From the IMG/VR virus record IMGVR_UViG_2778261177_000004, positions 1 through 45,510 of that record: 45,510 nt of DNA; one strand, written 5' to 3'. Numbering within the stretch: position 1 is the stretch's first letter; every line of letters begins with the position of its first letter. This DNA comes from a virus. Its lineage: Duplodnaviria; Heunggongvirae; Uroviricota; Caudoviricetes. Of this stretch, positions 17,898 to 45,510 are shown piece after piece. Position numbers and translations under genes: made by a program. The notes beneath the pieces are model-generated. The model searched no databases and was not told the origin of the DNA. It saw only the letters and a list, made by a program, of their open reading frames with translations.

Positions 17898-19553
17898 TCA
17901 ACGCATCAGGATTGGTTTGCCGAGGATTCGACGAGCAGTGCCTGTTGGGCACACGGACCATTCCACTTCCCACAAGTCGATGTCTTTTTGAGTTACCTTG
18001 ACCACATAAGGGTCTGAACCTTGAGATTCATCGCGTGGTGTAACCAGCGCACCAGCCGCATAAAAACGGTCCAGAAGATCTGTCAGTGCGTTAGTCAGAC
18101 TTTCCTGCGTTACGCCATCAGGTTCATGCTTGATTGCCTGAGCAACTTCATAGAAATTGCGGGCAATTGCATTCATCAGTGATGAAACGTGCTGGAATCG
18201 CAGATAGTTATTTTTGCTGTATGTCGTCAGGGAGTCGTCGATGTAGACAGAACCATCCGCTGCAACGCTTACAGGGTTAATACGAGCGGTCACATACGCT
18301 TCACGATCGATTGTGCCAATCCCGGAGAGTCTGGTGATGTTCTGGCGATCAATGATTGCGCGAGACAGACCTGCCGGGGCGTAATGCCAGCCGCCTACAT
18401 CAGACACAAGCGCAACGCCTTTAGCTTTTGCCACAAATGCGTCGCAACTGATTCCGTAAACCACATTCATACCGCTGAAAGTGTCACGGCATGAGTACGG
18501 GAAGTGATAACGTGCAGCCTGGTGGGATTTGCCGAAACCATGTGATTTAGCTTCTGCGATAGCGTTTTCACCAGTCTGAGCACATTTCAGGTCGTAGAAC
18601 ATATCCACGCGAACGTCTTCTGCCAGCGAATTGATTTTTGCCAGCACGGATGCGTCGTAGCAGCCCATAGAAAGCAGCGCGGTATAATTAACTTCTGACG
18701 CTTCGAGAACCTCTAACGCTTTCAGATAATCATCAGTGTCAATTGAGGACAGATCGCCATCTGTACCGCCTTCAAACGCTACATCTTCGAAAGTCAGCAA
18801 GTGAGCGGAGTCTTCGGCACCATCAGCCAGTACAGCTCCAAGCCTGGTGGACTGACTTTCTAACAACGCAGGAATCCATGCTGGCTGGCCCATATCGTTC
18901 GTTGCATCCGGATCGAAAGAAACCTGGTAGCTTTCCAGAGTTTCTACAGAACCATCGGTCTGTGTCTCTTTCAGTTCCAGAGTGAACAGGTCATTTTCTT
19001 CGTCCTCACGGGTCAGTGATAACGTGCGGTTGGTCGAAGCATCACCGTCCTTAATGTAGAAAATAGCCAGTTCATCCCCGGAAATTTCAGGTGTTTCGCT
19101 TGCAGCGAAAGTTACCGGAGAAGTGGCACCAGAAACGGCACGAACGGTCAGTGTATCGCCGATGTTTACCGTTGCTTCGGTCGGAGCAATTTGCAGAGTT
19201 TTTGCAGACTTAGTGCTTTTCGACTTGGCCTGAACAGAAACGGCAATGCCCGGTACTTTCATGTCTTTTGCGCATACGCGAACCACATAACCGCTGCCGC
19301 CTTTTACTGCGCGTTCAACGTGGCGATATGGTTCAAATGCGGCCCCGGTGCGCGGGTGAAGAGGTGAACCTAACACGCTCTGATAGTTGGCTGCTGTAAC
19401 CTGCAAAACCTTACCTGGCGCCCCTCTGCGGGAAATGACCAGCCCGGCAAAGACGGAAGCACCGCCAGATGTGTTAGTCAGAGTAGCATCGGCATTAACG
19501 TCCGCTACCGCAACGCCCGCAGCCTGACCAACAGAAAAACCAATTTTATTCAT
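17898..19553 (-). CDS. tail sheath protein (P1 gp22-like)
   Basis: 551 aa; the N-terminal region (GGASVFAGLVISRRGAPGKVLQVTAANYQSVLG...YVVRV) resembles sheath N-terminal domains; located upstream of the tube gene. Confidence 0.6.
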   Translation of the reverse strand: MNKIGFSVGQAAGVAVADVNADATLTNTSGGASVFAGLVISRRGAPGKVLQVTAANYQSVLGSPLHPRTGAAFEPYRHVERAVKGGSGYVVRVCAKDMKVPGIAVSVQAKSKSTKSAKTLQIAPTEATVNIGDTLTVRAVSGATSPVTFAASETPEISGDELAIFYIKDGDASTNRTLSLTREDEENDLFTLELKETQTDGSVETLESYQVSFDPDATNDMGQPAWIPALLESQSTRLGAVLADGAEDSAHLLTFEDVAFEGGTDGDLSSIDTDDYLKALEVLEASEVNYTALLSMGCYDASVLAKINSLAEDVRVDMFYDLKCAQTGENAIAEAKSHGFGKSHQAARYHFPYSCRDTFSGMNVVYGISCDAFVAKAKGVALVSDVGGWHYAPAGLSRAIIDRQNITRLSGIGTIDREAYVTARINPVSVAADGSVYIDDSLTTYSKNNYLRFQHVSSLMNAIARNFYEVAQAIKHEPDGVTQESLTNALTDLLDRFYAAGALVTPRDESQGSDPYVVKVTQKDIDLWEVEWSVCPTGTARRILGKPILMR

Positions 19554-19897: not shown

Positions 19898-20038
19898 TTT
19901 TTCCTCCATATAGCCCCCTATTCAGGGGCTGGTCTTACTTCTTTTTGGGTGTTTTTCGTGTCTTTGAAGTGCTCGCGGCGATAGTTTCACCTTCGTTTAC
20001 TTCAATTGCCGTTGGTGAAACTGACACGTTCGCCACTG

Positions 20039-21736
20039 CTACTTTTTTTCGTTGATTTGCCCGCTCAACATGTCAATCGCACCTTCTTTCGAACGTGTCA
20101 GGCGAAGGCGAGTGAAATAGTTCTCACCGTTGCGCGGATGCACATCGTTGATTGCTGTACCCCAAAGAGTGGTGCGGTTTACCAGGGCTGGATTTGTTTC
20201 GTGGACATACGGAATAGCAGGCACAGCATCACCAGCGACCAGGCCTGCTTTACCAATGCCTTCGCCACGACCATAGAAGTAGATGTCGTCCAGGCCAAAG
20301 TCGTAGCCATGTTCCTGGAATTGTTTGCAGATAGGCTTCGGCACTTCGTAGATACGAATGGAACCAAACAGGGTGCCGATGTATTGAATGTACGGCGACT
20401 GTACATAGCCCGGTGCCAACTGGAAGTGCTGCGGCGGTAAGGAACGCAGGAAGTTAGCAGCATCGCCACCAGCAAAGCCACCACGGATACCGGTAGTCAG
20501 GGTGCGGTCAGCCATGTCCTGTGACAGCGCGTTCACTACATGGCGAATTAAACCAACCCACGATTCGTAGTTCTGCGCTTCTGGCAGTGCCACATCAAAT
20601 TCACGACCGTAAACTGTGTGGAATACCAGAGTGCGCAGGCGCATCATATCGATTTCGTGGGAAATCCAGTTGCGCATTGCGGAGAATTGCAATGCTGCCA
20701 GTTCGAGTCCGTGTTCACGGCTCAGGTCAGATGCTGTCATAACCGTATGTTCGGATGCGATCACGTACTGCGACGGGCGCAGGGCGTAATTGCGCATGGA
20801 CTGGTTTATGACTGGTATCAGGCTCGGATTGCGTTCAATGTTGATTTCAACCTGAACAGCGATTTCTGTGCCTTCTGCTGGTGCTTCAGTAAAGGTGATA
20901 TCGATAACGCCGGTATCGTATTTAACTTTTGCTGTAGCAGAGAAAGAGTTGCCGTTGACGTCTTTGTCGTTGAAATACAGGTTGCCGTCACCATCATCTA
21001 CTTTGGACGGTTTGCGGTTAATCAGCAGTTTGTTGTAGCCCTGGCGCAGCGGGCAGGCCTGGCCTTCGAAGTTCTGGATATCAAACTGGAAGGTGGTTTT
21101 GCTGCCATCGCCTTTTTCGGTCAGGATGTACAGGCGTTTCATCTGCGAATACACGCCAGCAGACTGCATGTTCAGTTCATCGCCCTGCTCGAATGTACCG
21201 AATTTTGTACCAGCAACGTTGGTCAGTTCGTAAATATTGGTTTCATCACGATCACAAGGGATAAACGTACATGCGTCGCTGGTGGCTGCGCCGAGAGAAG
21301 CAGGCAGGATCAGTGCGGCATATTGTGCAACCTTCATTACACCATCGGAGGTGCGCATGTCCTTGGCTACTGATTCAAACATGGCTTTGCCAGCGCCTTC
21401 ATGCGTCTCTTTAGCGGACTCCATCATCAGGCGCTCAAGTGCTACATGGGCGTTGGCTAATACATCGCTTGCCGGATAGTGCCCATGCTGGCGTTTGTAT
21501 TCATGAATAGACATGGCCCAGCTACCAATGATCTGGCGAGCTGCTTCTGGTCCAACGCCTTCAAACATAGGCTCTTTCTGGATAGCTTTTTCCAGGTTAG
21601 CCATCATCACTTCGTTGTCGGCAATCATGTTACCGGCAGCATCAGTGGTTGGATCGACGGTCATAGCCATGACGCTTGCCGCCCGATTCATAATCTCGCG
21701 CTCGCGCTTACGAGCTGGCTCAATGTTCTTGTTCAC
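20039..21736 (-). CDS. putative major head (capsid) protein (P1 gp23-like, 565 aa)
   Basis: Size and position (upstream of decoration and sheath genes, followed by an attenuator hairpin) resemble P1 gene 23. No motif-level confirmation by eye. Confidence 0.45.
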   Translation of the reverse strand: MNKNIEPARKREREIMNRAASVMAMTVDPTTDAAGNMIADNEVMMANLEKAIQKEPMFEGVGPEAARQIIGSWAMSIHEYKRQHGHYPASDVLANAHVALERLMMESAKETHEGAGKAMFESVAKDMRTSDGVMKVAQYAALILPASLGAATSDACTFIPCDRDETNIYELTNVAGTKFGTFEQGDELNMQSAGVYSQMKRLYILTEKGDGSKTTFQFDIQNFEGQACPLRQGYNKLLINRKPSKVDDGDGNLYFNDKDVNGNSFSATAKVKYDTGVIDITFTEAPAEGTEIAVQVEINIERNPSLIPVINQSMRNYALRPSQYVIASEHTVMTASDLSREHGLELAALQFSAMRNWISHEIDMMRLRTLVFHTVYGREFDVALPEAQNYESWVGLIRHVVNALSQDMADRTLTTGIRGGFAGGDAANFLRSLPPQHFQLAPGYVQSPYIQYIGTLFGSIRIYEVPKPICKQFQEHGYDFGLDDIYFYGRGEGIGKAGLVAGDAVPAIPYVHETNPALVNRTTLWGTAINDVHPRNGENYFTRLRLTRSKEGAIDMLSGQINEKK

Positions 21737-21840: not shown

Positions 21841-21891
21841 AAAACTGTGTTGCTATGATTTAATCTTAGTTTTCTAACACAATCATTAGAA
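21841..21891. promoter_or_regulatory. divergent promoter region with operator-like inverted repeat (AAAACTGTGTT ... TTCTAACACAATCATTAGAA)
   Basis: Shares the TGTGTTAG / CTAACACA motif with the palindromes at 29930-29979 and 44009-44038. Confidence 0.35.
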
Positions 21892-28355: not shown

Positions 28356-29162
28356 TCAGCCACGGATTCCCTCCTTATTTGCTTCAAATACAGCTCTTGC
28401 AAAACCGTAAGGTGTCGCGCTACGAAAATTCGCTCTTTCAGGTCCTGGCGGTGCCTTGTGTATTCGGTTGTCTGGATCACCTAACGACTCGTCGATTCGC
28501 GGAGTTGGCATGATGAATCCTTGTCCGCTCCACAGGCATGTTTTTTTGGTGTAATTGTCTTCCTTGCAATATGCAGTGAAGTGATAAGGATGGAATATGT
28601 GATCAGGTTTACGCCAGAATGTCGATATTTGGCTGACCGGGTTTTCAATCATGTACGGGCAACCAATCATCTTTGCAATGTCGTAACACTGCCAGACAAC
28701 CTGCATTGCTTTGAACTGGAAAACCGGATCTTTTTTCGCTTTATCTGCGAACCAGCGTGCGCCAGATACAGCCAGGTCAGTACATGGAGGGAAACCGGCT
28801 AAAAATACAACTCTGTGCAAATTTTTCCGAAGGAAATTGTAGACCTCATCACTGTCAATAATTGCGCTGATACGTGTGAGTACAGCACCTGACTCCATCA
28901 ATTGGCTGCCGGACTCCTGGTGTTGCGGATCGACAATGACTGCATCAATGCCGTGTTCCAGCCAGGGGGAAACCATATTCCCTGTATAATCACAAAGACT
29001 CACCGCCAGCGGTCGGTTATTAATGCTCTGCTTCACCGCCAATGGCCTCCACCAGCGAGCTAAACATCGCGGATAATTCGCTTGTGAACAGAATGAAGTC
29101 AGCATCAAATCGCTGGGCAACATCTTCACGGTCGATGTCATCGTTCTGGTCATAGAGATCAT
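28356..29162 (-). CDS. DNA (cytosine-5)-methyltransferase-like protein (short; start uncertain)
   Basis: Motif IV-like GFPPCTDLAVSG and motif VI-like ENP; motif I is degenerate. The ORF start overlaps the rdgC 3' end. Confidence 0.45.
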   Translation of the reverse strand: MISMTRTMTSTVKMLPSDLMLTSFCSQANYPRCLARWWRPLAVKQSINNRPLAVSLCDYTGNMVSPWLEHGIDAVIVDPQHQESGSQLMESGAVLTRISAIIDSDEVYNFLRKNLHRVVFLAGFPPCTDLAVSGARWFADKAKKDPVFQFKAMQVVWQCYDIAKMIGCPYMIENPVSQISTFWRKPDHIFHPYHFTAYCKEDNYTKKTCLWSGQGFIMPTPRIDESLGDPDNRIHKAPPGPERANFRSATPYGFARAVFEANKEGIRG

Positions 29163-29925
29163 CGCAAAACGTCAGTGCTTTGATGCTCATGTCATCGTTT
29201 AACCTGAAGGTCGCGCGGTCCTGCCAGTTTATTGCAACTGTTGTTGCAACTTTTCCGGCTTCAATATGAGTCATTATTTCCTCTGACTGTAGGTCTACTT
29301 TCTTGCAACGAACTGCGCCGCCGTCATCGAACAGAGATTTCAATATGGCTTCTTCGCCTGCTTTAAAGCCTTGAGGAAATGTTGACTTGAACCATTCGGT
29401 CATAGTCATTTCGAGCGGTTCTATCGGCGTGAATGGAATCACTGGCAGGCTGCCAAGTGATTTACGTAAGAGCGCCAGCATTTCTTCTGCTTTTCTGGCG
29501 CTGGAAGCTTCAACGAAGACCAGATAGTTGTCGCGATCAATAAGGATTCGCGACAATGATTTGCGAGTGAATGCGCGAGGCAACAAAGAGTGGAGAACTT
29601 CATCCTTCAGGGTGTTTTTTTCCGACTTCTTCAGCTTACGAGATTGCTCATTTTCGAGCTTTTCCACTTTTTTCTGCACTTCCTCCTTAATGACATGAGA
29701 GGGCAGGAGCTTAATTTCTCGCTGTTGCTGGAGAAGTAGAAAACCGTGGTATTCATGGATCAGGTTGTCAGCCAGAACCGGCACCCATCCGACTTTTGCC
29801 ATTTCTTGTGATGCGCATGGAGTGAATGTGAATTGGCTTAAGGCATCACTAACGGTGGTTGAGTCCAGTTTAATTTCGCGGGCAAGGCGATAGACGTATA
29901 TGTTTTTAAAGGCGACTAATCTCAT
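29020..29925 (-). CDS. rdgC: recombination-associated protein RdgC homolog
   Basis: Collinear similarity to E. coli RdgC (recalled from memory): VYRL, FTPC, VLHSLLPRAF, LALLRKSLGSLPV, EDIDRED.AQRFDADFIL. ATG at 29925 chosen over the TTG at 29934. Confidence 0.85.
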   Translation of the reverse strand: MRLVAFKNIYVYRLAREIKLDSTTVSDALSQFTFTPCASQEMAKVGWVPVLADNLIHEYHGFLLLQQQREIKLLPSHVIKEEVQKKVEKLENEQSRKLKKSEKNTLKDEVLHSLLPRAFTRKSLSRILIDRDNYLVFVEASSARKAEEMLALLRKSLGSLPVIPFTPIEPLEMTMTEWFKSTFPQGFKAGEEAILKSLFDDGGAVRCKKVDLQSEEIMTHIEAGKVATTVAINWQDRATFRLNDDMSIKALTFCDDLYDQNDDIDREDVAQRFDADFILFTSELSAMFSSLVEAIGGEAEH

Positions 29926-29929
29926 GTTT

Positions 29930-29979
29930 TGCAAAACTGTGTTAGAAAATAAAACTCAATTATCTAACACAGTTTTGCA
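29930..29979. promoter_or_regulatory. 50-bp palindrome with perfect 17-bp arms (TGCAAAACTGTGTTAGA ... TCTAACACAGTTTTGCA); candidate operator or regulatory hairpin
   Basis: Lies between the spike gene stop and the rdgC start, 5 nt from the rdgC ATG, which has no obvious SD. Shares the TGTGTTAGAAAAT motif with other sites. Confidence 0.5.
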
Positions 29980-29984
29980 TTTTG

Positions 29985-30662
29985 CTATCCCTTCACAAAG
30001 GAGAAATTGCTCGCTGTTGCTTTTAGCGCGCCACCAGCTTTCAGGGCTATATCACCATCAGCGGCGACGGTTACATTGCTGCCTTTTACATTAACGTCTC
30101 CATCAGAGGATACATTGGTTTTGCTGCTTGATTTGACGTTAACCTCACCTCCAGCATTAAGCACTATATTCGCCGGGCCGATTATGTAAATCTGGCCGGA
30201 TTCGTTCATCCCTATCCTTGATCCTGCGGCGGTGTTTGCTATTTCATAGCCACCGCCAGCCGTTCTGACCTCAAGGATATTGTTTCGGTGAATAACAAAA
30301 TCTTCAGTCGCCGAAAACTGGGGGCGGGCAGGAGCACCATCAACTTCTTCTGGCGACCATCCACTTCCTTGTCCGGAGGCTTCTGGAGGCACATTTGGTA
30401 CGCCTCCTGGGGCATCCTGCGCCGCACCAACGATTAAAGGTCGGCGCGTGTCTATCCTGCCTTTAGCATCCAGATAAGGAAATTCGACCCAGACTAAATC
30501 GCCGCTGACTGTAGGTGTAAAGGCGTTACCGATAGGCATTTGATACTCTGCCCATGGGAGGTCTTCATCCGGTACACCGTTCCAGTCAGGCAGTATGCGG
30601 ACCTGCGCTCGCATAAGTCCGGCAGGGTGTTTGGTCCCTACGATTTGCGCTCTGCGTTTCAC
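29985..30662 (-). CDS. baseplate central spike protein (gpV / gp45 / gp5 OB-fold-like)
   Basis: 225 aa; N-terminal OB-like region (RAQVRILPDWNGVPDEDLPWAEY...GDLVWVEF) and C-terminal Gly-rich beta-helix-like repeats. Confidence 0.55.
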   Translation of the reverse strand: MKRRAQIVGTKHPAGLMRAQVRILPDWNGVPDEDLPWAEYQMPIGNAFTPTVSGDLVWVEFPYLDAKGRIDTRRPLIVGAAQDAPGGVPNVPPEASGQGSGWSPEEVDGAPARPQFSATEDFVIHRNNILEVRTAGGGYEIANTAAGSRIGMNESGQIYIIGPANIVLNAGGEVNVKSSSKTNVSSDGDVNVKGSNVTVAADGDIALKAGGALKATASNFSFVKG

Positions 30663-37392: not shown

Positions 37393-37624
37393 TGCTTTGG
37401 CGTTATGACTCCCTACCGCGCTTCGGCTGAAAGTTAATCGTCAAAAGAACCTTCAACGGGAGCCGTTAGCGCGATGGATTATGTGTAGTTTGTGATTTCC
37501 AAAATAGTGTCAACCACTTTTTGTGGATTTTATTTTTTGACCGAAATTTGGCCTAAATCATGTTGATGTAGTTAATTGTTTTTATAACATAAAACTTCAT
37601 TTTGTTTACATGAAGGATGGTGTA

Positions 37625-38253: not shown

Positions 38254-38646
38254 TTGAAAAGATTTGCTATTGCTTTACTGGCGTCTTTCCCTTTGATCGC
38301 GAGCGCCGGAAATTTACAAGTTAAGTGCGGTCGGTTTGATATAAAAATCTATCCAGATGCCATATTTCTGAATGGGAATAAGGTTGATAACGCACACCGA
38401 AAAACTGAATCTGACGTAATGAGCTATGTGTTCCAGTAGTATGCGGAGATGGGGGGAACTTACACGCTGTACTCGCTGGATGTTCCTTCTCGCGGTGATA
38501 TGACATTATCCCATCAATGGCAGAACGCCGATGGCGAAGCTCTGCGCGAGGTTAAAACAGAAAAATGTGGCACTTTCCATTCTTTTAAAGGGAAAGCGCC
38601 AAATGTTAAATCTGTGCTTGAAAAACAGCGCGCAGGTGATTTTTAA
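38254..38646 (+). pseudogene. secreted small protein gene interrupted by an in-frame amber (TAG at 38437-38439)
   Basis: ORFs 38254..38439 and 38449..38646 are in the same frame; GGAGG RBS and TTG start; signal peptide MKRFAIALLASFPLIASA; both halves contain a KCG.F motif. Confidence 0.35.
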
Positions 38647-38734
38647 ACTGCGTTAGAACTTTGAACATGGCGACAACACATCTTGGTGGCTGCGTTGTCG
38701 CTGTATGCTTTTATAATATAAAGCATTAAAGTTT

Positions 38735-39352
38735 TCATTTTTGTCGGATCTTTTCCAGCATATTTAATTCATTATCACTTTCTGCTGCTGAGACGGTTGG
38801 CCTCACATTTCCGAAATATTTCCTGTGAGACTCATGACTTATGTATTCACCGACAGTTTCATTCTTGAATATACGAATTTGACATATGCGAGATCCAACA
38901 ATAAGTTCCACAGGGCTATTCCCATGATTAAATAACTCTAAAGATATACAGCCTCTGTACCCTGGTTGTATCATGGTATTTAATGAAAGACCAAGCCTTG
39001 TATAGCTGCTTCTGGACAATACATCAGCGTAGCAATCTGGTGGCAAACAAACATATTCTAATGTTGTTGCCAGTACCACTTGATTCGGGTAAACAATGAA
39101 TCTATCCCCAAGATCTCTCCTTGTTTCCTGGAAAAATGTTCTGATTGGTTGATGAGTATCATTGTTTTTAGAGGGAATTAACTCTATTGACGGCTTCCTT
39201 GTCATAATAGACACTAAAAAATCGTAACCAAGTCTAAGGTCTATGGTGAAGTTCCCAATTTGGTTTTTATTTAGAAGAGGTTCAATGAACAACGATTCAG
39301 GTTCTTCTGATTCATAATATTGCAGTAATTCAGCTTTGCTTAGGAGATTCAT
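38735..39352 (-). CDS. dCTP deaminase (Dcd/dUTPase-fold) family protein
   Basis: Collinear similarity to E. coli Dcd (recalled from memory): IDLRLGYDF; SRSSYTRLGL versus GRSSLARLGL; IQPGYRGCISLELFNHGNSPVELIVGSRICQIRIF versus [34 protein letters not shown]. ATGA start/stop overlap with the upstream gene. AT-rich. Confidence 0.7.
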   Translation of the reverse strand: MNLLSKAELLQYYESEEPESLFIEPLLNKNQIGNFTIDLRLGYDFLVSIMTRKPSIELIPSKNNDTHQPIRTFFQETRRDLGDRFIVYPNQVVLATTLEYVCLPPDCYADVLSRSSYTRLGLSLNTMIQPGYRGCISLELFNHGNSPVELIVGSRICQIRIFKNETVGEYISHESHRKYFGNVRPTVSAAESDNELNMLEKIRQK

Positions 39353-40434
39353 TGTGCATTCCATTTTTCAAGAATCATTACGTTTCGAATCGATTTTTCA
39401 ACCAAATCATTTATAGTTTTTTCTATGGCTTCTTTTGACAACCCAGACCATATACCCGTAGGTTTTTCCCATTCAGAGCATAAGTACTGCCAGCTGCTGT
39501 TAATAAAAGCATGCATTTCATTGTGGTCGCGAATAACAAAAGGACGCACATTATCAAAAGCTGATTTCACATCAAGCAAAGGTGTCGGCAATGTCAAACA
39601 AGGAGAAATAATTTGCCCACCCTTATGTAAGGCTGATATCACAGCATTGAACATGCCAATAACTGGATTTTCCACTTTGTTCAAAAAGTCGCTTACAACT
39701 TTAACCCTGTTTTCTGTTGATGGGTGAGTTTCGCTTGCAGGATGAGAACCAGCTAATTTGTATAAGAAATCCACACCGCTTTCCCCTACAAATTGCGCAC
39801 TGAAAAGATCTGCAAAATACTCCCTACAGTGATTCAGCCAAATAACATCAGGTAATTTAGACCACTCAATACCTTTATGTGGCACAGGAAGCGTACCTTG
39901 ATTAATAGAACGAAAGTTTAGATTGGCAAGCTCAGAAATACCTTTGCTAATATCAACAAAGTGGCCCAACTCGTGATATAAAGGTGTTGAGCACAATGGT
40001 CGTCTTCGGTACATTTCAGGTAATGAAATCTGAATTAATTCGATATCGCATTTAACATGTAAAATTTCATTAAGTAAAGTGTAGAAATTCTTACTTACAG
40101 ACTTAAAATAAAACCCATTCATATCTGGCGATAGAGCCGTTGTAATAAGTGTTTTTTCACTTATCCATTTTTTACAGGCATCATTTAAGCAATAAACAAT
40201 CTCGTAGGGAATTTTCTTTGTAGTACTGCCAGTGAAAAAATTAACTGCATCGGTGATAAAAAAAGTACAATCAGCAATTATTTCATCGGCAACCTTCTCA
40301 TGGTTTTCATATAGCTTATCTGCTGCTTCTTGTAGAACAGCGAGATATTCATGCATGTCTTTAGAAAAATAGGGAGATTCTGAAATCTCCCTTAGCTTAT
40401 TTCGAACTAATGTAAGTTGTGTAAATGCAAGCAT
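39349..40434 (-). CDS. HExxH zinc metallopeptidase-like protein (ImmA/IrrE-like signature)
   Basis: 361 aa with LYHELGHFVD followed about 45 aa later by EYFADLFSAQF, resembling the ImmA/IrrE HExxH...E..AN.FA pattern; TAATG overlap with the upstream gene; AT-rich. Confidence 0.5.
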   Translation of the reverse strand: MLAFTQLTLVRNKLREISESPYFSKDMHEYLAVLQEAADKLYENHEKVADEIIADCTFFITDAVNFFTGSTTKKIPYEIVYCLNDACKKWISEKTLITTALSPDMNGFYFKSVSKNFYTLLNEILHVKCDIELIQISLPEMYRRRPLCSTPLYHELGHFVDISKGISELANLNFRSINQGTLPVPHKGIEWSKLPDVIWLNHCREYFADLFSAQFVGESGVDFLYKLAGSHPASETHPSTENRVKVVSDFLNKVENPVIGMFNAVISALHKGGQIISPCLTLPTPLLDVKSAFDNVRPFVIRDHNEMHAFINSSWQYLCSEWEKPTGIWSGLSKEAIEKTINDLVEKSIRNVMILEKWNAQ

Positions 40435-40739
40435 TAAATGTACTCTAATACATTCCGGGCCATTACGGGTTCTAACATATCTTCGCTAGTTACTTTGGTT
40501 AGCACCTTGGCTAGCGCCTTAGTATGGCGTATTTCTACCGCGAGCGAGATGGACTCTCTGTGAGAGGGAATCTGTAGTTGATCACCTTTATCTACACTTA
40601 AGTTTGAGGCTTCTCTGATCACCTCATAAACCCGTAACTTTAACTGCTGTGACACTTCTTGTTGAGATGCTATAAGCTGAAGTACAGTCTTGATCAACTT
40701 CAAAGAATCAGAAGCTTGCTGAGGAACCGCATAGAGCAT
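40434..40739 (-). CDS. small helical protein, first gene of the three-gene operon
   Basis: 101-aa ORF translationally coupled to the metallopeptidase-like gene. Confidence 0.45.
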   Translation of the reverse strand: MLYAVPQQASDSLKLIKTVLQLIASQQEVSQQLKLRVYEVIREASNLSVDKGDQLQIPSHRESISLAVEIRHTKALAKVLTKVTSEDMLEPVMARNVLEYI

Positions 40740-40877
40740 AACCCCTCCTTTCCCTTATCTATAACCGCTTTCTTTTTTTCTGTGTATGTTAAAAGTAGAA
40801 GCGGTTTTTACCTTTTGTAATATATATAGTGTCTAAAACTAACTTTGGCACTATATATGGCATGATATCTATGTTTT

Positions 40878-40920
40878 AAAGACACAAAAGCTCTGTTTTA
40901 ACAGAGCTTTTGTGTCTTTA
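40878..40920. repeat. perfect 43-bp palindrome (19-bp arms, aaagacacaaaagctctgtt / aacagagcttttgtgtcttta) in a highly structured intergenic region
   Basis: Perfect inverted repeat; additional inverted repeats nearby at about 40763-40807, 40822-40858 and 40949-40997. Confidence 0.6.
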
Positions 40921-41065
40921 ACTTGATCATTTTCTCGCTGAAGTGTATGTCAGGCTTAGCTCATAATCAAGTTGCTTCCAAGCTAAAAATGAGCTGGCTC
41001 CCTGAAACACTAAGAGCGGGGTGTTTCATTTATTAGCGTTGGGCCTGACGGTGTGTAGGTGAGTT

Positions 41066-41380
41066 TTAGCTCATTACTCGATAACGACGGGGAACGGAAT
41101 TATCCATCAGGTCACGAATTACTCCCGCTTCACGCAGTTCCTCTGTCTCCCAGTATCTGTTTGTCACCAGGTCAAGGCTGGCAATGACTTTATGCCGGTC
41201 ATTCGGCATTGCTTCTTTTTCAGCCATTATCATCAGTGAGAACTCTTCATCCAGTAGAATTTGATACCAGACTTTTGACAGTTCCAACTCTCTAATGAGG
41301 GTGAAGCGCCGCTCAATTGTGGCGGAAGAATAAGTGAAATCAATTTTTTTCGTGGCATACATTTTGCTGTGTCCGGTCAC
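41066..41380 (-). CDS. hypothetical protein downstream of the antirepressor
   Basis: 104-aa ORF. Confidence 0.45.
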   Translation of the reverse strand: MTGHSKMYATKKIDFTYSSATIERRFTLIRELELSKVWYQILLDEEFSLMIMAEKEAMPNDRHKVIASLDLVTNRYWETEELREAGVIRDLMDNSVPRRYRVMS

Positions 41381-41418: not shown

Positions 41419-42360
41419 TTAACTAACAATCCAGTCGGTCGCTGCTACATCTTCTGGCTGTAAATCAATCGCACAGATTTTGCCGTCGCGAATGGTGCGC
41501 CAGTTTTTCCGTGAGCCTCTTTCGGGCCATACCCAGACACTTTCAGGCCAGGATGCTCGACGGCATACGGTTGCATACCCTGTTTTAATCTTCTCTCTGG
41601 CGGTATGCAACGACAGGTTTGCCTTTGGACTTTCAGGCACAGGATGGTGAATGGCCTGAAATAGCCCCATCCTGGGATGATACCAGCGTTTGTTACGTGG
41701 TTCTGCCTCCGACATAACCTGCTTAAAGGCTTTCCGGAAGGGGGCCAGGGCCACAATGGAGCGTCTCGCGAGCAAACCATCGGGAGTTAAAAACTCATGT
41801 GTATCGGTGGGAATCCGATACGCATTGACCAGGTTACGGCATTTGGCTTCAGTCAGGCCGCATTTTGCCGCTAACTGGCGGTAGCTAATGTAGCCTTCCG
41901 GAATATTGCCTTTCTTTATTTGCTCGACGGTTTCAGCGACTTTGGACACTTGTGCCGATACTTCGGCTACCTGGGCATTAACGGCGTTGATCCGGCGTTC
42001 ATGCTCAAGATGCATTTGCGCCATTTCGGCCAAGATTTCGGCTTTTGATTTTAACGGTCCCCTGGCATTCTCCAGTTCGCGCCAGCGGTCCACCAGCCGG
42101 GCGGTGAATTCGGGAGAGAGCTGCGCGACGACAATGATGCTATCGCGCTTGCCTTGTTCGCCTTCAAAGATGTAAGCCTTGGAAAATCGACGAGGGCCAA
42201 CTGATTGTTTATTTTCAATTTCCTCAATTTGAGGAAATTGAATGACACCACCTTTAGTTAATACTTCAATGGTACGCTTCACATTATCATGACGCTTACC
42301 TACCAGTTCCGCGATCTCAATACTGGTCATTGTCGCTTTTTGAGAGATGGACAGATTCAT
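41419..42360 (-). CDS. ant: antirepressor (Rha/Ant-like N-terminal domain)
   Basis: 313 aa; N-terminal MTSIEIAELVGKRHDNVKRTIE is typical of the Rha/antirepressor family; translationally coupled (TGATG) to the upstream small ORF, as in P1 icd-ant. Confidence 0.65.
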   Translation of the reverse strand: MNLSISQKATMTSIEIAELVGKRHDNVKRTIEVLTKGGVIQFPQIEEIENKQSVGPRRFSKAYIFEGEQGKRDSIIVVAQLSPEFTARLVDRWRELENARGPLKSKAEILAEMAQMHLEHERRINAVNAQVAEVSAQVSKVAETVEQIKKGNIPEGYISYRQLAAKCGLTEAKCRNLVNAYRIPTDTHEFLTPDGLLARRSIVALAPFRKAFKQVMSEAEPRNKRWYHPRMGLFQAIHHPVPESPKANLSLHTAREKIKTGYATVCRRASWPESVWVWPERGSRKNWRTIRDGKICAIDLQPEDVAATDWIVS

Positions 42361-42589: not shown

Positions 42590-42700
42590 TTGACTAAGTT
42601 AAGGAGCTACCGCGTGAGGTTCCAATCTCAATGGCGGTAGCACTGACTGGGTTGGAACTACCGGCGTCAAAGGGAACCGGCCTGCCTTTCGGCAGCCCAG
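42590..42700 (-). ncRNA. candidate c4-like antisense/regulatory RNA leader upstream of the icd-like ORF
   Basis: Hairpin gctaccgc...gcggtagc with a 20-nt loop plus complementary GTTCCAA/TTGGAAC segments, directly upstream of the icd-like RBS. Purely structural inference. Confidence 0.25.
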
Positions 42701-42888
42701 CCAGCACTACCATTGATCTCTGAGCTAAACGCTAAGTATGGCTGTGCGATGGCATGACACAAAAAAAGACGCGTTCGGCGTCTGTGTCGCCTTTGACATT
42801 ATCCGGGGTTCCAATCCCGGCACCCGTTTTTCTAAGGTGCCGTAGAAATATACCCCACGATAATGCCAGGGCGCAACTGTGTGTTTTC

Positions 42889-43056: not shown

Positions 43057-43387
43057 TTTGACACCCCCAGCGCGAGTAAAGAATGCAGATTATCGCGTGA
43101 GTGGCGGACAACGAGTGATGGGAAAAGACAGTAGCTGTTCATAGTGTAGTGACTCCTTGCTTTCGGAGCCGCCATCGACTGTTCCACGGTCTGGTGGCGG
43201 CGCAATAAAGGTTGGAACACCGTGAGTCAACGGGGGCTTTTCAGCCACCTATATTGCACCGCCATTGGTATGGCGGCGGCAATCATACGAAAAACCAAAC
43301 GGTTTGTCTCAAAAAGTTGACCGGTGTACCAATCGGTTGTGAATGTACAACGGCGAATCTCACAATTCAACTTAAAATGTTAGAAAA

Positions 43388-43963
43388 TTAATTTATTAAT
43401 TCAGTCACCATCTGATACAACGTCATTTCATCAGCATTGTGCCGCCTGAAATCTGCTTTGCCGCCTATTTTTCCATCAGCATGAACAGGAACCAACCAGG
43501 GGTATTGCTCGCGGATCTCTGCTGGCGCTGCGTGTTGATGGTGCCATTTACACAAAGGGAGGACGTATTTATGCGCGTTCTCTGCTGTTCTTCCGAAGAT
43601 GTGGTGCAGGGATACCACAGGGCTATGCTGTCCGTGCATATGGCAGGCAATGCAGGGGAGAGCACCGATGGCAGTTTGTATCCGGCGCTCATCTGCTGTG
43701 AGTGTTCTGCCTTTCAGGCCGCGTGACGCGCGAGTTTTTTTGACAGGAGCAGAAGCGGCCTTCTCTTTTCTTCGCTGTTCATATTGCTTCGCTTTTTCAA
43801 TTTTCTTTTGCCGATATTCAGGCGATGCGGCTTTTTCTCGCGCACGCTGCTGCTGGCGTTGAGCTTGCTGAAGACGCTTTGCCCTTTGTTCCTCCCGCCA
43901 TTTCGGATCAGCCAGTTTTTGCAGGGCTTTTTGTGTCTGTTTCTCCCAATAGCTTTGCTTCAT
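43388..43963 (-). CDS. ref: Ref-like HNH endonuclease (P1 recombination enhancement function homolog)
   Basis: Strong similarity to P1 Ref (recalled from memory): KLADPKWREEQ, GALPCIACHMHG, VSLHHI.GRTA, LPLCKWHHQHAAPAEIREQYPWLVPVHADG. Start at the ATG at 43963 by alignment. Confidence 0.85.
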   Translation of the reverse strand: MKQSYWEKQTQKALQKLADPKWREEQRAKRLQQAQRQQQRAREKAASPEYRQKKIEKAKQYEQRRKEKAASAPVKKTRASRGLKGRTLTADERRIQTAIGALPCIACHMHGQHSPVVSLHHIFGRTAENAHKYVLPLCKWHHQHAAPAEIREQYPWLVPVHADGKIGGKADFRRHNADEMTLYQMVTELIN

Positions 43964-44008
43964 AGAAATACCCGGTTTGTCTACATCGCCGCTATGGTTG
44001 ATCAAATA

Positions 44009-44038
44009 TGTTAGAAAATCAAAATTGATTTTCTAACA
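44009..44038. promoter_or_regulatory. 30-bp near-perfect palindrome (TGTTAGAAAATCAAAATTGATTTTCTAACA); candidate repressor operator between ref and a divergent operon
   Basis: Centred about 60 bp upstream of the ref ATG and about 55 bp upstream of the divergent small ORF; motif also at 43378-43390, 29930-29979 and 21841-21891. Confidence 0.5.
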
Positions 44039-44079
44039 CAAAATGAAGATACTTTTTTCAGACGCTATATCAGGAGGTC

Positions 44080-44235
44080 ATGATGCTTGTCGCAATAAGT
44101 GCAATCCACCAGCAATCCGGTACAGAAATTGGGTTGCTATATGCCCTGTTTTTCACTGTCCTGGCGTTGTTTGAGCTGGGCATTGAACTCTTTGCTCTCA
44201 TCAACTTTTGCGTAACGTTCCTGGGGAAACTTTGA
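44080..44235 (+). CDS. small hydrophobic membrane peptide (51 aa), translationally coupled to the downstream gene
   Basis: Strong AGGAGG RBS 5 nt upstream of ATGATG; MMLVAISAIHQQSGTEIGLLYALFFTVLALFELGIELFALINFCVTFLGKL; TGATG overlap with the next start. Confidence 0.4.
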   Translation: MMLVAISAIHQQSGTEIGLLYALFFTVLALFELGIELFALINFCVTFLGKL

Positions 44236-44846
44236 TGTCAAAACGCATTATGAAAATTTACATCGCGGGTCCGATGACTGGTTATCCCGACTACAACCGC
44301 ACAGCGTTTTTTTCGAAAGCAAAAGAGCTGATGGAGGTAGGGCATATTGTTCTGAATCCGGCGCTGTTACCTGCTGGCCTCTGCGAGAGCGAATACATGG
44401 ATATTTGCCTTGCAATGGTGCGTTCGGCTAATGCGGTCTATTTGCTCAAGGGGTGGGAGGAATCAGTTGGCGCTCGTGCAGAGCACGAGCTGGCTCAAAA
44501 GCTGGGGCTGAATGTAATTTATGAGTCACCAACCAACATTGAATGCCAGGTTGCTCCGCATATTTACCGGGAACTGGTCAATGCACTACGTGATATCGCT
44601 GCTGTATATCACGGCACAGAACAGCTTCGTGAGCGTTTAGCCCATACCATTTCCTATTACCTGTCTGCATCTCATGAGCACAAGCTCCGTCAGAAGGTAA
44701 TGATCAAATTTATCATGAGGTTATCGAAATCCCTGGCAAGCGCCGATCCAAAGAATCCATTACCGAAAGAGGCAATGAATTACCTGAAGTCCTGCAACGT
44801 TGTTTCTGAAGATGGCGTTCTTTTGGTTAGAAGGAGTTCTGCGTGA
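44235..44846 (+). CDS. hypothetical protein with an N-terminal nucleoside 2-deoxyribosyltransferase-like (DUF4406-like) motif
   Basis: MKIYIAGPMTGYPDYNRTAFF...HIVLNPA resembles the IYIAGPMTG signature of DUF4406-type proteins; GGGGAA RBS. Confidence 0.45.
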   Translation: MSKRIMKIYIAGPMTGYPDYNRTAFFSKAKELMEVGHIVLNPALLPAGLCESEYMDICLAMVRSANAVYLLKGWEESVGARAEHELAQKLGLNVIYESPTNIECQVAPHIYRELVNALRDIAAVYHGTEQLRERLAHTISYYLSASHEHKLRQKVMIKFIMRLSKSLASADPKNPLPKEAMNYLKSCNVVSEDGVLLVRRSSA

Positions 44847-45160
44847 GCTGGCGGGGATGGGGAAGGGCAGAAATCATGATACTCCGCCAGTGCGCCGGGA
44901 CTATGACAGTCGAGGGTATTGGGAGACTGATCGGGCGTACCGGTGGTGCTGTCAGGACTAAAGCGCGGCAATTGCGGATCAGCATGATTCTGAAAGGTGA
45001 CTTTCACCAGTCAGCCAAATACCGGCAGAGCGATATAGAGCTGGCGCGGCAGCTTCATCAGTGTGGCGTTCCCCGCCGTGAGATCGCAGAAAAACTCGAA
45101 ATGCCCCTGGGCATGATTAATCAGTACGTTTATTTCGAAAGGAGAGTGCATGAAGTCTGA
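44843..45160 (+). CDS. putative HTH DNA-binding protein
   Basis: GTG start with AAGGAG RBS overlapping the upstream stop; helix-turn-helix-like segments (VEGIGRLIGRTGGAVRTKARQL; VPRREIAEKLEMPLG). Confidence 0.4.
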   Translation: MSWRGWGRAEIMILRQCAGTMTVEGIGRLIGRTGGAVRTKARQLRISMILKGDFHQSAKYRQSDIELARQLHQCGVPRREIAEKLEMPLGMINQYVYFERRVHEV

Positions 45161-45510
45161 AGGTTTAACGCCCGCACAACTGGCAGAGCGTAACGCTGAG
45201 TATGTAACGGAAATTTCCCGACTTGAGAAAGAGCGCGCGGCGCTGGCGGCGGAGAATGCTCTTGCTCGTAAAGCTGTTCAGGCATTCTGTGAGGTTGTTG
45301 GCGACAACACTGAGATTATCTCCGAGTTGGTTGGGCAAGATGGCGTTCTGGTTATTTTGAAGGCCATGAAGGCAACAGGAAATATGTCAGCCACCGACGC
45401 TTTCCTGGCTGAAATACGTGCGGAGGCACGCAACGAGGGGATTAACTACACCGCAAGCCGTCTTGCTGCTGCGTTCAATCACGGATTTATCAATAAGTCT
45501 TTGCGTGAAG
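45150..45510 (+). CDS. hypothetical protein (3'-partial, runs off the window end)
   Basis: ATG at 45150 with an AAGGAGAG RBS; open frame to the window edge; overlaps the upstream stop by 11 nt. Confidence 0.4.
   Translation, partial: MKSEGLTPAQLAERNAEYVTEISRLEKERAALAAENALARKAVQAFCEVVGDNTEIISELVGQDGVLVILKAMKATGNMSATDAFLAEIRAEARNEGINYTASRLAAAFNHGFINKSLRE

Follow-up and report, generated by a model that had tools for sequence, protein, structure and literature searches.

What is the function of the 30-bp palindrome that lies between the nuclease gene ref and the divergent genes next to it, and which protein would bind it? This question is raised by positions 44009-44038 of the window, by which we mean the whole stretch of 45,510 nucleotides analysed here. 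An earlier note on this DNA had described a near-perfect palindrome at this place and had proposed that it is an operator. The palindrome is indeed real, but the word near-perfect has to be corrected, because in the window its arms are perfect: the inverted repeat (14+2+14, 30 bp) consists of TGTTAGAAAATCAA (44009-44022) and TTGATTTTCTAACA (44025-44038), which are 100% complementary, and only the central dinucleotide AA, which forms the 2-nt separator, is not self-complementary. Of 200 first-order Markov simulations of the window, only 0.5% had an inverted repeat whose arms are perfect, at least 14 nt long and no more than 4 nt apart. The distance from the palindrome to the annotated ATG of ref (43963, minus strand) is 45 nt and the distance to the ATG of a 51-aa ORF (44080, plus strand) is 41 nt; therefore, the palindrome is centred in a divergent intergenic gap of 116 bp, and its position between ref and a divergent operon is as the earlier note had placed it. 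We consider it quite probable that this palindrome serves the C1-type master repressor of a D6-like phage-plasmid of the P1 family as a bivalent operator.

The genes on both sides of the gap were also recognized correctly by the earlier note: the searches returned PF16786 for ref, a hydrophobic 51-aa ORF, PF14359 (DUF4406) for the second gene of the divergent operon and phrog_323 for its regulator gene. The ref gene is annotated as a Ref family nuclease both in the Escherichia coli plasmid NZ_LR890273.1 and in phage D6. The 51-aa ORF is preceded by AGGAGG at 44072-44077, and its stop codon TGA overlaps the start codon ATG of the DUF4406 gene (ATGA overlap). The 94-aa protein encoded further downstream has a match to Pfam Sigma70_r4_2 under the cut-off and is called a DNA-binding protein in the annotation of the closest plasmid.

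The closest plasmid is NZ_LR890273.1, a non-mobilizable replicon of 92.8 kb. The part of the window from 43300 to 45510 is 99.5% identical to this plasmid and 88% identical to phage D6, and the whole window is collinear with NZ_LR890273.1 with the sole exception of 38646-41079. On the basis of the identity and collinearity with NZ_LR890273.1 and D6 we assign the window to a D6-like plasmid prophage of the P1 family, of which, judged by its sequence, it is a part. The locus with ref and the palindrome matches 242 plasmid records of PLSDB, nearly all of them from Escherichia or Salmonella.

Each arm of the palindrome is a copy of a half-site motif, TGTTAGAAAAYYAAnnT, that is dispersed over the element. 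The window has five copies of its 10-nt core, TGTTAGAAAA (in the two arms of the palindrome and at 43378, 29940 and 21870), vs 0.10 expected, and none of 100 shuffled sequences reached this number. The 12 sites of the complete plasmid that contain the exact core served to construct a position weight matrix, which with a cut-off of at least 10 bits detected 8 sites in the window; the corresponding numbers are 20 for the complete closest plasmid and 18 for D6. All 16 of the D6 sites that were checked against the annotation are intergenic, while intergenic DNA makes up 10.2% of that genome; for the 13 strong D6 sites, all of them intergenic, P is about 1e-13. In the information profile of 32 distinct sites, positions 1-10 (TGTTAGAAAA), 13-14 (AA) and 17 (T) are conserved and positions 11-12 (Y) partially so; there is no internal dyad, and the T at position 17 is retained in the monovalent sites as well. 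By this profile the unit site is asymmetric and about 17 nt long. At the palindrome the left and the right 17-nt units overlap by 4 bp, which gives a total of 30 bp. The complete plasmid has five such paired sites, every one of them 30 bp long and made of two inverted 17-mers with a 4-bp overlap; two of the five are present in the window.

Table 1. Features of the window that bear on the palindrome; bit scores refer to the site matrix unless a family is given, and all operators and promoters are candidates.
Feature	Positions	Strand	Evidence
Candidate bivalent (palindromic) operator, two inverted 14-nt half-sites TGTTAGAAAATCAA, 2-nt gap	44009..44038	.	both arms 30-33 bits
Candidate left 17-nt operator unit TGTTAGAAAATCAAAAT, ref-proximal	44009..44025	+	information-content profile, 32 sites
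Candidate right 17-nt operator unit TGTTAGAAAATCAATTT (minus-strand reading), proximal to plus-strand operon	44022..44038	-	matrix, profile, conservation
Predicted sigma-70 promoter of plus-strand operon: -35 TTGATT 44025-44030, 17-nt spacer, -10 GATACT 44048-44053	44025..44053	+	weighted scan, score 8.8
Predicted ref promoter: -35 TTGATT 44022-44017, 17-nt spacer, -10 AACCAT 43999-43994	43994..44022	-	weighted scan, score 6.9, weak
ref, RecA-dependent nuclease, 191 aa from annotated ATG	43388..43963	-	PF16786, E = 5e-36
51-aa hydrophobic ORF, D6 orf88 homologue, first in divergent operon	44080..44235	+	phrog_8890, E = 7e-31
DUF4406 gene, nucleoside 2-deoxyribosyltransferase-like	44235..44846	+	PF14359, E = 4e-35; phrog_355
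94-aa putative DNA-binding (HTH) protein	44876..45160	+	phrog_323 'transcriptional regulator', E = 2e-23
Candidate monovalent operator TGTTAGAAAATTAATTT, overlaps ref stop codon, upstream of isrK-like/c4/icd/ant (immI)	43378..43394	+	31 bits
Candidate second 30-bp bivalent operator (TGTTAGAAAATAAA / TGTTAGATAATTGA), directly upstream of rdgC/hrdC-like gene	29940..29969	.	28 and 20.5 bits
Candidate monovalent operator TGTTAGAAAACTAA, between major-capsid gene and divergent 130-aa ORF	21866..21879	-	26.5 bits, intergenic
Weak operator-like site TGTTATAAAAACAA, mat-like/simB-like divergent gap	37576..37589	-	16.4 bits, intergenic
C4 antisense RNA, immI region	42630..42717	-	Rfam RF01695, 77 bits

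The remaining sites of the window have their counterparts in the relatives. The site at 43378 is kept in all D6-like loci. The second pair, whose weaker partner is located at 29956-29969, lies in the intergenic gap between the ORFs 29020-29934 and 29985-30662 and corresponds to positions 64116-64145 of D6; the counterpart of the site at 21866 is found at 54204 of D6 and that of the weak site at 37576 is found at 72198. When the D6 and plasmid sites are compared with the annotation, they are located 15 bp upstream of the c1-like gene, upstream of lpa, repL and ref, at the ref stop codon, upstream of both c4/icd/ant-type regions and of hrdC (rdgC)/dam, between ppp and pdcB, between the major capsid gene and the divergent ORF, and at the 3' end of cre. 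The orientation of the sites relative to the downstream genes is not uniform: a rule by which the 5' end of the operator serves as the -35 element holds for ref, orf88, lpa and immI-1 but not for c1, pmgS and immI-2, and was rejected. An operator-like sequence with two mismatches, TGTTAGAAAGTCAG at 18852-18865, did not reach 10 bits with the matrix; in the closest plasmid it corresponds to position 81858, inside an annotated structural-gene CDS (81170-82825), and this sequence is probably a chance match. No operators are annotated in the D6 records, and a full-text literature search found no description of the motif; this search covered literature other than the D6 genome paper, so an earlier description is possible.

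The conservation of the site was followed in an alignment of 29 distinct ref-upstream sequences (27 from IMG/VR, D6 and the window), 26 of which are D6-like. The right arm is invariant in 25 of the 26 distinct D6-like sequences and the flanks diverge strongly. Together with the adjoining CAAAA the right arm is essentially invariant among the 26, the exceptions being a one-base deletion in L031 and a symmetric substitution in L035, a locus whose Ref is 72% identical and whose two arms share an identical A-to-T change. In the sub-clade of the window the left arm is perfect, and in the D6 clade, where the TTAGA core is kept, it is degenerate (NGTTAGATATTCAA); in D6 itself the ref-proximal arm, GATTAGATATTCAA, is mismatched at 4 of 14 positions. 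Therefore, the perfect palindrome is specific to the sub-clade of the window, and a strictly bivalent site is not universal at this locus. The block CTATGRTTGATCA, which includes a GATC sequence, is also conserved among the D6-like sequences. This GATC (Dam) site, at 44000-44003 just left of the palindrome and in the spacer of the predicted ref promoter, is present in all aligned D6-like sequences; in the P1 record, Dam-sensitive promoters are annotated for cre.

Outside the D6-like group the operator code is different. The C1 repressor of P1 is reported to bind 22 dispersed asymmetric operators of 17 bp with the consensus ATTGCTCTAATAAATTT (PMC8546580). The P1 record places one of them, Oref, between the -35 and -10 elements of P2ref, a second one, Omat, at the ref stop codon, and Oc1a-e around c1/coi; the earlier note had stated that ref of P1 is under C1 control, and an annotated C1 operator, Oref, does precede this gene. 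No TGTTAGAAAA-type site was found at the P1 loci or at three Ref-bearing loci of other lineages. P1 and L033 carry TGCTCTAAT-type sites, and the P1-type loci have ATTGCTCTAAT-type operators in place of TGTTAGAAAA. Single isolated copies of TGCTCTAAT also occur in D6 (L040) and L035, at none of the D6-like operator positions. Similarly, a match to the P1/P7 consensus ATTGCTCTAATAAATTT was found at none of the D6-like operator positions. Thus the palindrome is not an operator of P1 immunity and would be at most its heteroimmune counterpart, and the earlier remark that its sequence departs from the P1 C1 consensus holds: ATTGCTCTAATAAATTT is unmatched here and the P1-type loci are without the D6-type motif. 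The best alignment of the two motifs, with the P1 operator reverse-complemented, gives 13 consensus-level matches at 17 positions around the TTAGA core, but column-shuffled controls are not beaten (p = 0.21), and the homology of the D6-type motif to the P1 operator is therefore a lead only. In the alternative alignment, with both motifs in the same orientation, it is mainly the AT-rich 3' half that they have in common.

Which repressor would recognize this motif? The c1 gene lies outside the window, as the earlier note had expected when it suggested looking for a c1-like gene there, and in the closest relatives the c1 position is occupied by a gene for a 345-aa protein; in the near-identical plasmid this gene adjoins pacB and is divergent from cre, as expected for the P1 c1 position. 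The 345-aa protein is 21% identical to P1 C1 over 241 aa (E = 1e-7) and both proteins belong to phrog_1678, while the NCBIfam model phage_rep_C1 gives a sub-threshold score of 24 bits vs a cut-off of 500. It is 80% identical to the product of D6 orf1, which is annotated as a prophage repressor similar to P1 C1. WP_029701835.1 and YP_009914678.1 are examples of such D6-type C1 proteins. By these sequence comparisons the protein is a distant C1 homologue, known from close relatives of the window element. A search for distant C1 relatives, in which repressor and operator could be compared for covariation, gave only proteins at least 99% identical. The co-repressor Lxc was reported to be absent from D6-like elements (PMC6799933).

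The promoters of the gap are predicted with less certainty. A consensus promoter scan of the gap between ref and the 51-aa ORF called no promoter, and the two candidates from the weighted scan score no higher than random windows may do (median 6.6, 90th percentile 9.2), so their placements are hypotheses only. They are supported by the fact that the same aligned positions score best in the window and in D6, and by the analogy with Oref of P1: the plus-strand candidate is the best of its strand in the window, as is the one at the aligned position of D6, and the candidate for ref has the best minus-strand score in the window, with TTGAAT/AATCAT (8.2) at the aligned position in D6. In both candidates the inner hexamer of the operator arm is hypothesized to be the -35 element of a promoter directed outward.

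From the features of the locus we infer the binding, its stoichiometry, the promoter positions and the binding protein, and with them a role of the palindrome as the D6-lineage counterpart of the P1 C1 operator at a divergent promoter region. Two repressor molecules, or one dimer, would sit on the two arms as long as the element is a plasmid prophage. The inner hexamers TTGATT of the arms would be the -35 elements of promoters firing outward, to the left into ref and to the right into the early operon of the 51-aa ORF, the DUF4406 gene and the HTH gene. Because each inner hexamer is a candidate -35 element, occupation of this single site would close the two divergent promoters. Both would open again if the repressor were inactivated, for instance by Ant, the antirepressor from the neighbouring immI region. 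Through the set of about 20 sites the lytic and accessory genes of the plasmid prophage are most likely silenced. The proposal of the earlier note, a repressor operator with a specificity other than that of P1, agrees with the intergenic dispersed motif in front of the counterparts of P1 C1 targets and with the distant C1 homologue, which would be its ligand.

One would argue that the palindrome could serve another regulator of the phage, above all the 94-aa HTH protein, which as an autoregulator or a Cro-like protein might share the site with C1 or use it instead. Such an arrangement is conceivable, as a putative transcriptional regulator (phrog_323, E = 2e-23) is among the products of the operon that the palindrome would control, and autoregulation through a palindrome in the own promoter is common. 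The presence or absence of the two genes cannot separate the HTH protein from C1, because the HTH gene is present in every D6-like element examined. However, the distribution of the motif speaks against this: about 20 sites are found all over the 92-kb element, among them sites directly before c1, lpa, repL and c4, which is the target pattern of C1 in P1 (PMC8546580), and an asymmetric unit of about 17 nt that occurs both single and paired is characteristic of C1. In addition, the homologues of the HTH protein are distant (30-40% identity) and belong to unrelated Vibrio, Serratia and Mu-like phages. We thus regard control by the HTH protein as unlikely. It is highly improbable that the palindrome is a site of a host protein, such as a nucleoid-associated protein or a global regulator, or an AT-rich palindrome arisen by chance. 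Although the sequence is AT-rich and intergenic and has the conserved GATC (Dam) alongside, inspection revealed no fit to the generally known consensus sequences of LexA, FNR, IHF, CRP and Fur, and chance is excluded by the count of the core (5 vs 0.10 expected) as well as by the Markov simulations (0.5%). Moreover, the motif is found only in D6-lineage elements, whereas P1-lineage elements in the same hosts carry another motif; a motif confined to one lineage therefore points to a ligand encoded by the element.

A palindrome of this kind could also act as a structure of the nucleic acid itself, either as an RNA hairpin (a terminator or a processing signal) or as a DNA cruciform. If transcribed, it would form a stem of 13 bp, a stretch of 61 nt folds at -16.9 kcal/mol (z = -5.8), and L035 has matching changes in both arms. 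However, both flanking genes diverge from the palindrome, and for this reason there is nothing there to terminate; the stem is AT-rich, a T-run follows the palindrome on neither strand, and the terminator scan made no call. The left arm of the D6 clade, with its 3-4 uncompensated mismatches, breaks the stem and still keeps the TTAGA core, and the half-site stands alone at many sites where a hairpin is impossible. The divergent genes, the missing T-run, the uncompensated changes in one arm and the lone half-sites led us to reject the terminator or hairpin reading, and a structural role as such seems scarcely credible to us.

Besides the sites of the motif, the window has several other features. 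An isrK-type Hfq-binding RNA match at 42762-42840 (minus strand, 61 bits) immediately precedes the C4 RNA, and the C4 and isrK-type RNAs lie upstream of icd and a Rha-type ant gene, which makes an immI-type immunity region beside ref. D6-like elements have a second icd/Rha-type antirepressor region with its own upstream operator (L003 17183-18473; D6 19986-21276), a region that is also described in PMC6799933. A perfect palindrome of 14+1+14 nt at 42214-42242, TTCAATTTCCTCAA/TTGAGGAAATTGAA, is located inside the Rha-type ant ORF (41419-42360, minus strand). The longest palindrome of the window is a perfect one of 46 bp at 40876-40921 (22+2+22), TTAAAGACACAAAAGCTCTGTT/AACAGAGCTTTTGTGTCTTTAA, which precedes the first ORF of a three-gene cassette (38735-40739, minus strand) by about 140 bp. 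This cassette consists of a 101-aa ORF, a 361-aa ORF with an HELGH motif and a 209-aa dCTP-deaminase-like ORF (PF22769, E = 1e-30), and it sits between the simB-like and ant genes in the stretch 38646-41079 that does not align with the closest plasmid. PADLOC gave no match for the cassette and Pfam none for the 361-aa ORF; the cassette may be an accessory or defence insertion.

The reading of the palindrome as a C1-type operator leaves the general picture of P1-type immunity unchanged. The palindrome is an expected kind of feature with a sequence that differs from that of P1. Its value is that the operator code of the master repressor defines the immunity group of the D6-like phage-plasmids and allows a sequence-based prediction of their lysogeny regulon, which would include ref, the DUF4406 early operon, rdgC/dam, repL, lpa and the two immI regions. 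Phage-plasmids of the D6 type are frequent in Escherichia coli and Salmonella, and some P1-family relatives carry resistance genes. The 30-bp site is also a concrete reagent for tests of repression and induction. A more far-reaching idea, which we put forward tentatively and consider rather unlikely, is that the C1 repressors of the D6 lineage, which are about 60 aa longer than P1 C1 and come from elements for which the absence of Lxc is reported, recognize their operators by a mechanism different from that of P1 C1. They could bind as obligate or cooperative dimers by means of the C-terminal extension; if this is true, the paired sites of 30 bp would be high-affinity switches and the ref/orf88 palindrome would be a single bidirectional switch. 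If the alignment of the TCTAA core to the P1 operator reflects true homology, the paired units would be oriented opposite to those of the P1 bivalent operators. If either is true, the P1 family would have a second, independently evolved operator code.

The nearest known systems are phage D6 (NC_050154 / MF356679) and D6-like plasmid prophages such as pYU39_89, which have the gene order ref, orf88, DUF4406, orf90 in common with the window. The DNA identity to D6 at the locus is 88%, with no change in the right operator arm, and the set of operators is conserved throughout the genome; D6 differs by its degenerate ref-proximal arm. The comparison with P1, where C1 controls repL and lpa among other genes (PMC8546580), and in particular with its Oref (former Op2a) and Oc1ab (former Op99a,b), reveals the same organization: both systems have about 20 dispersed sites, an asymmetric unit of about 17 nt that is used singly and as inverted pairs with the units overlapping at the dyad, an operator within the ref promoter region and another one at the ref stop codon, and c1, lpa, repL and c4 as other targets, and the candidate repressor of the D6-like elements belongs to the protein family of P1 C1. 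What differs is the sequence (TGTTAGAAAAYYAAnnT in D6-like elements vs ATTGCTCTAATAAATTT in P1), the span of the pair, which is 30 bp with a 4-bp overlap in D6-like elements and 28 bp in P1, where the bivalent Oc1ab is made of two inverted 17-mers with a 6-bp overlap, and the repressor, with a candidate of 345 aa vs 283 aa in P1 (21% identity). The ref operator of P1 is monovalent and serves one promoter, whereas that of the window is bivalent and lies between divergent genes that are absent from this place in P1. The predicted -35 elements of the window are inside the operator arms, which resembles P1, where Oref fills the spacer of P2ref. The lambdoid OR-type regions are similar in that a repressor-bound region between divergent genes would control both directions and in that heteroimmune relatives have different operator sequences. 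However, the lambdoid operators, which are bound by dimeric HTH repressors, are symmetric and form clusters at two loci, while the D6-like unit site, as in P1 and unlike the lambdoid one, also stands alone and is scattered over the genome.
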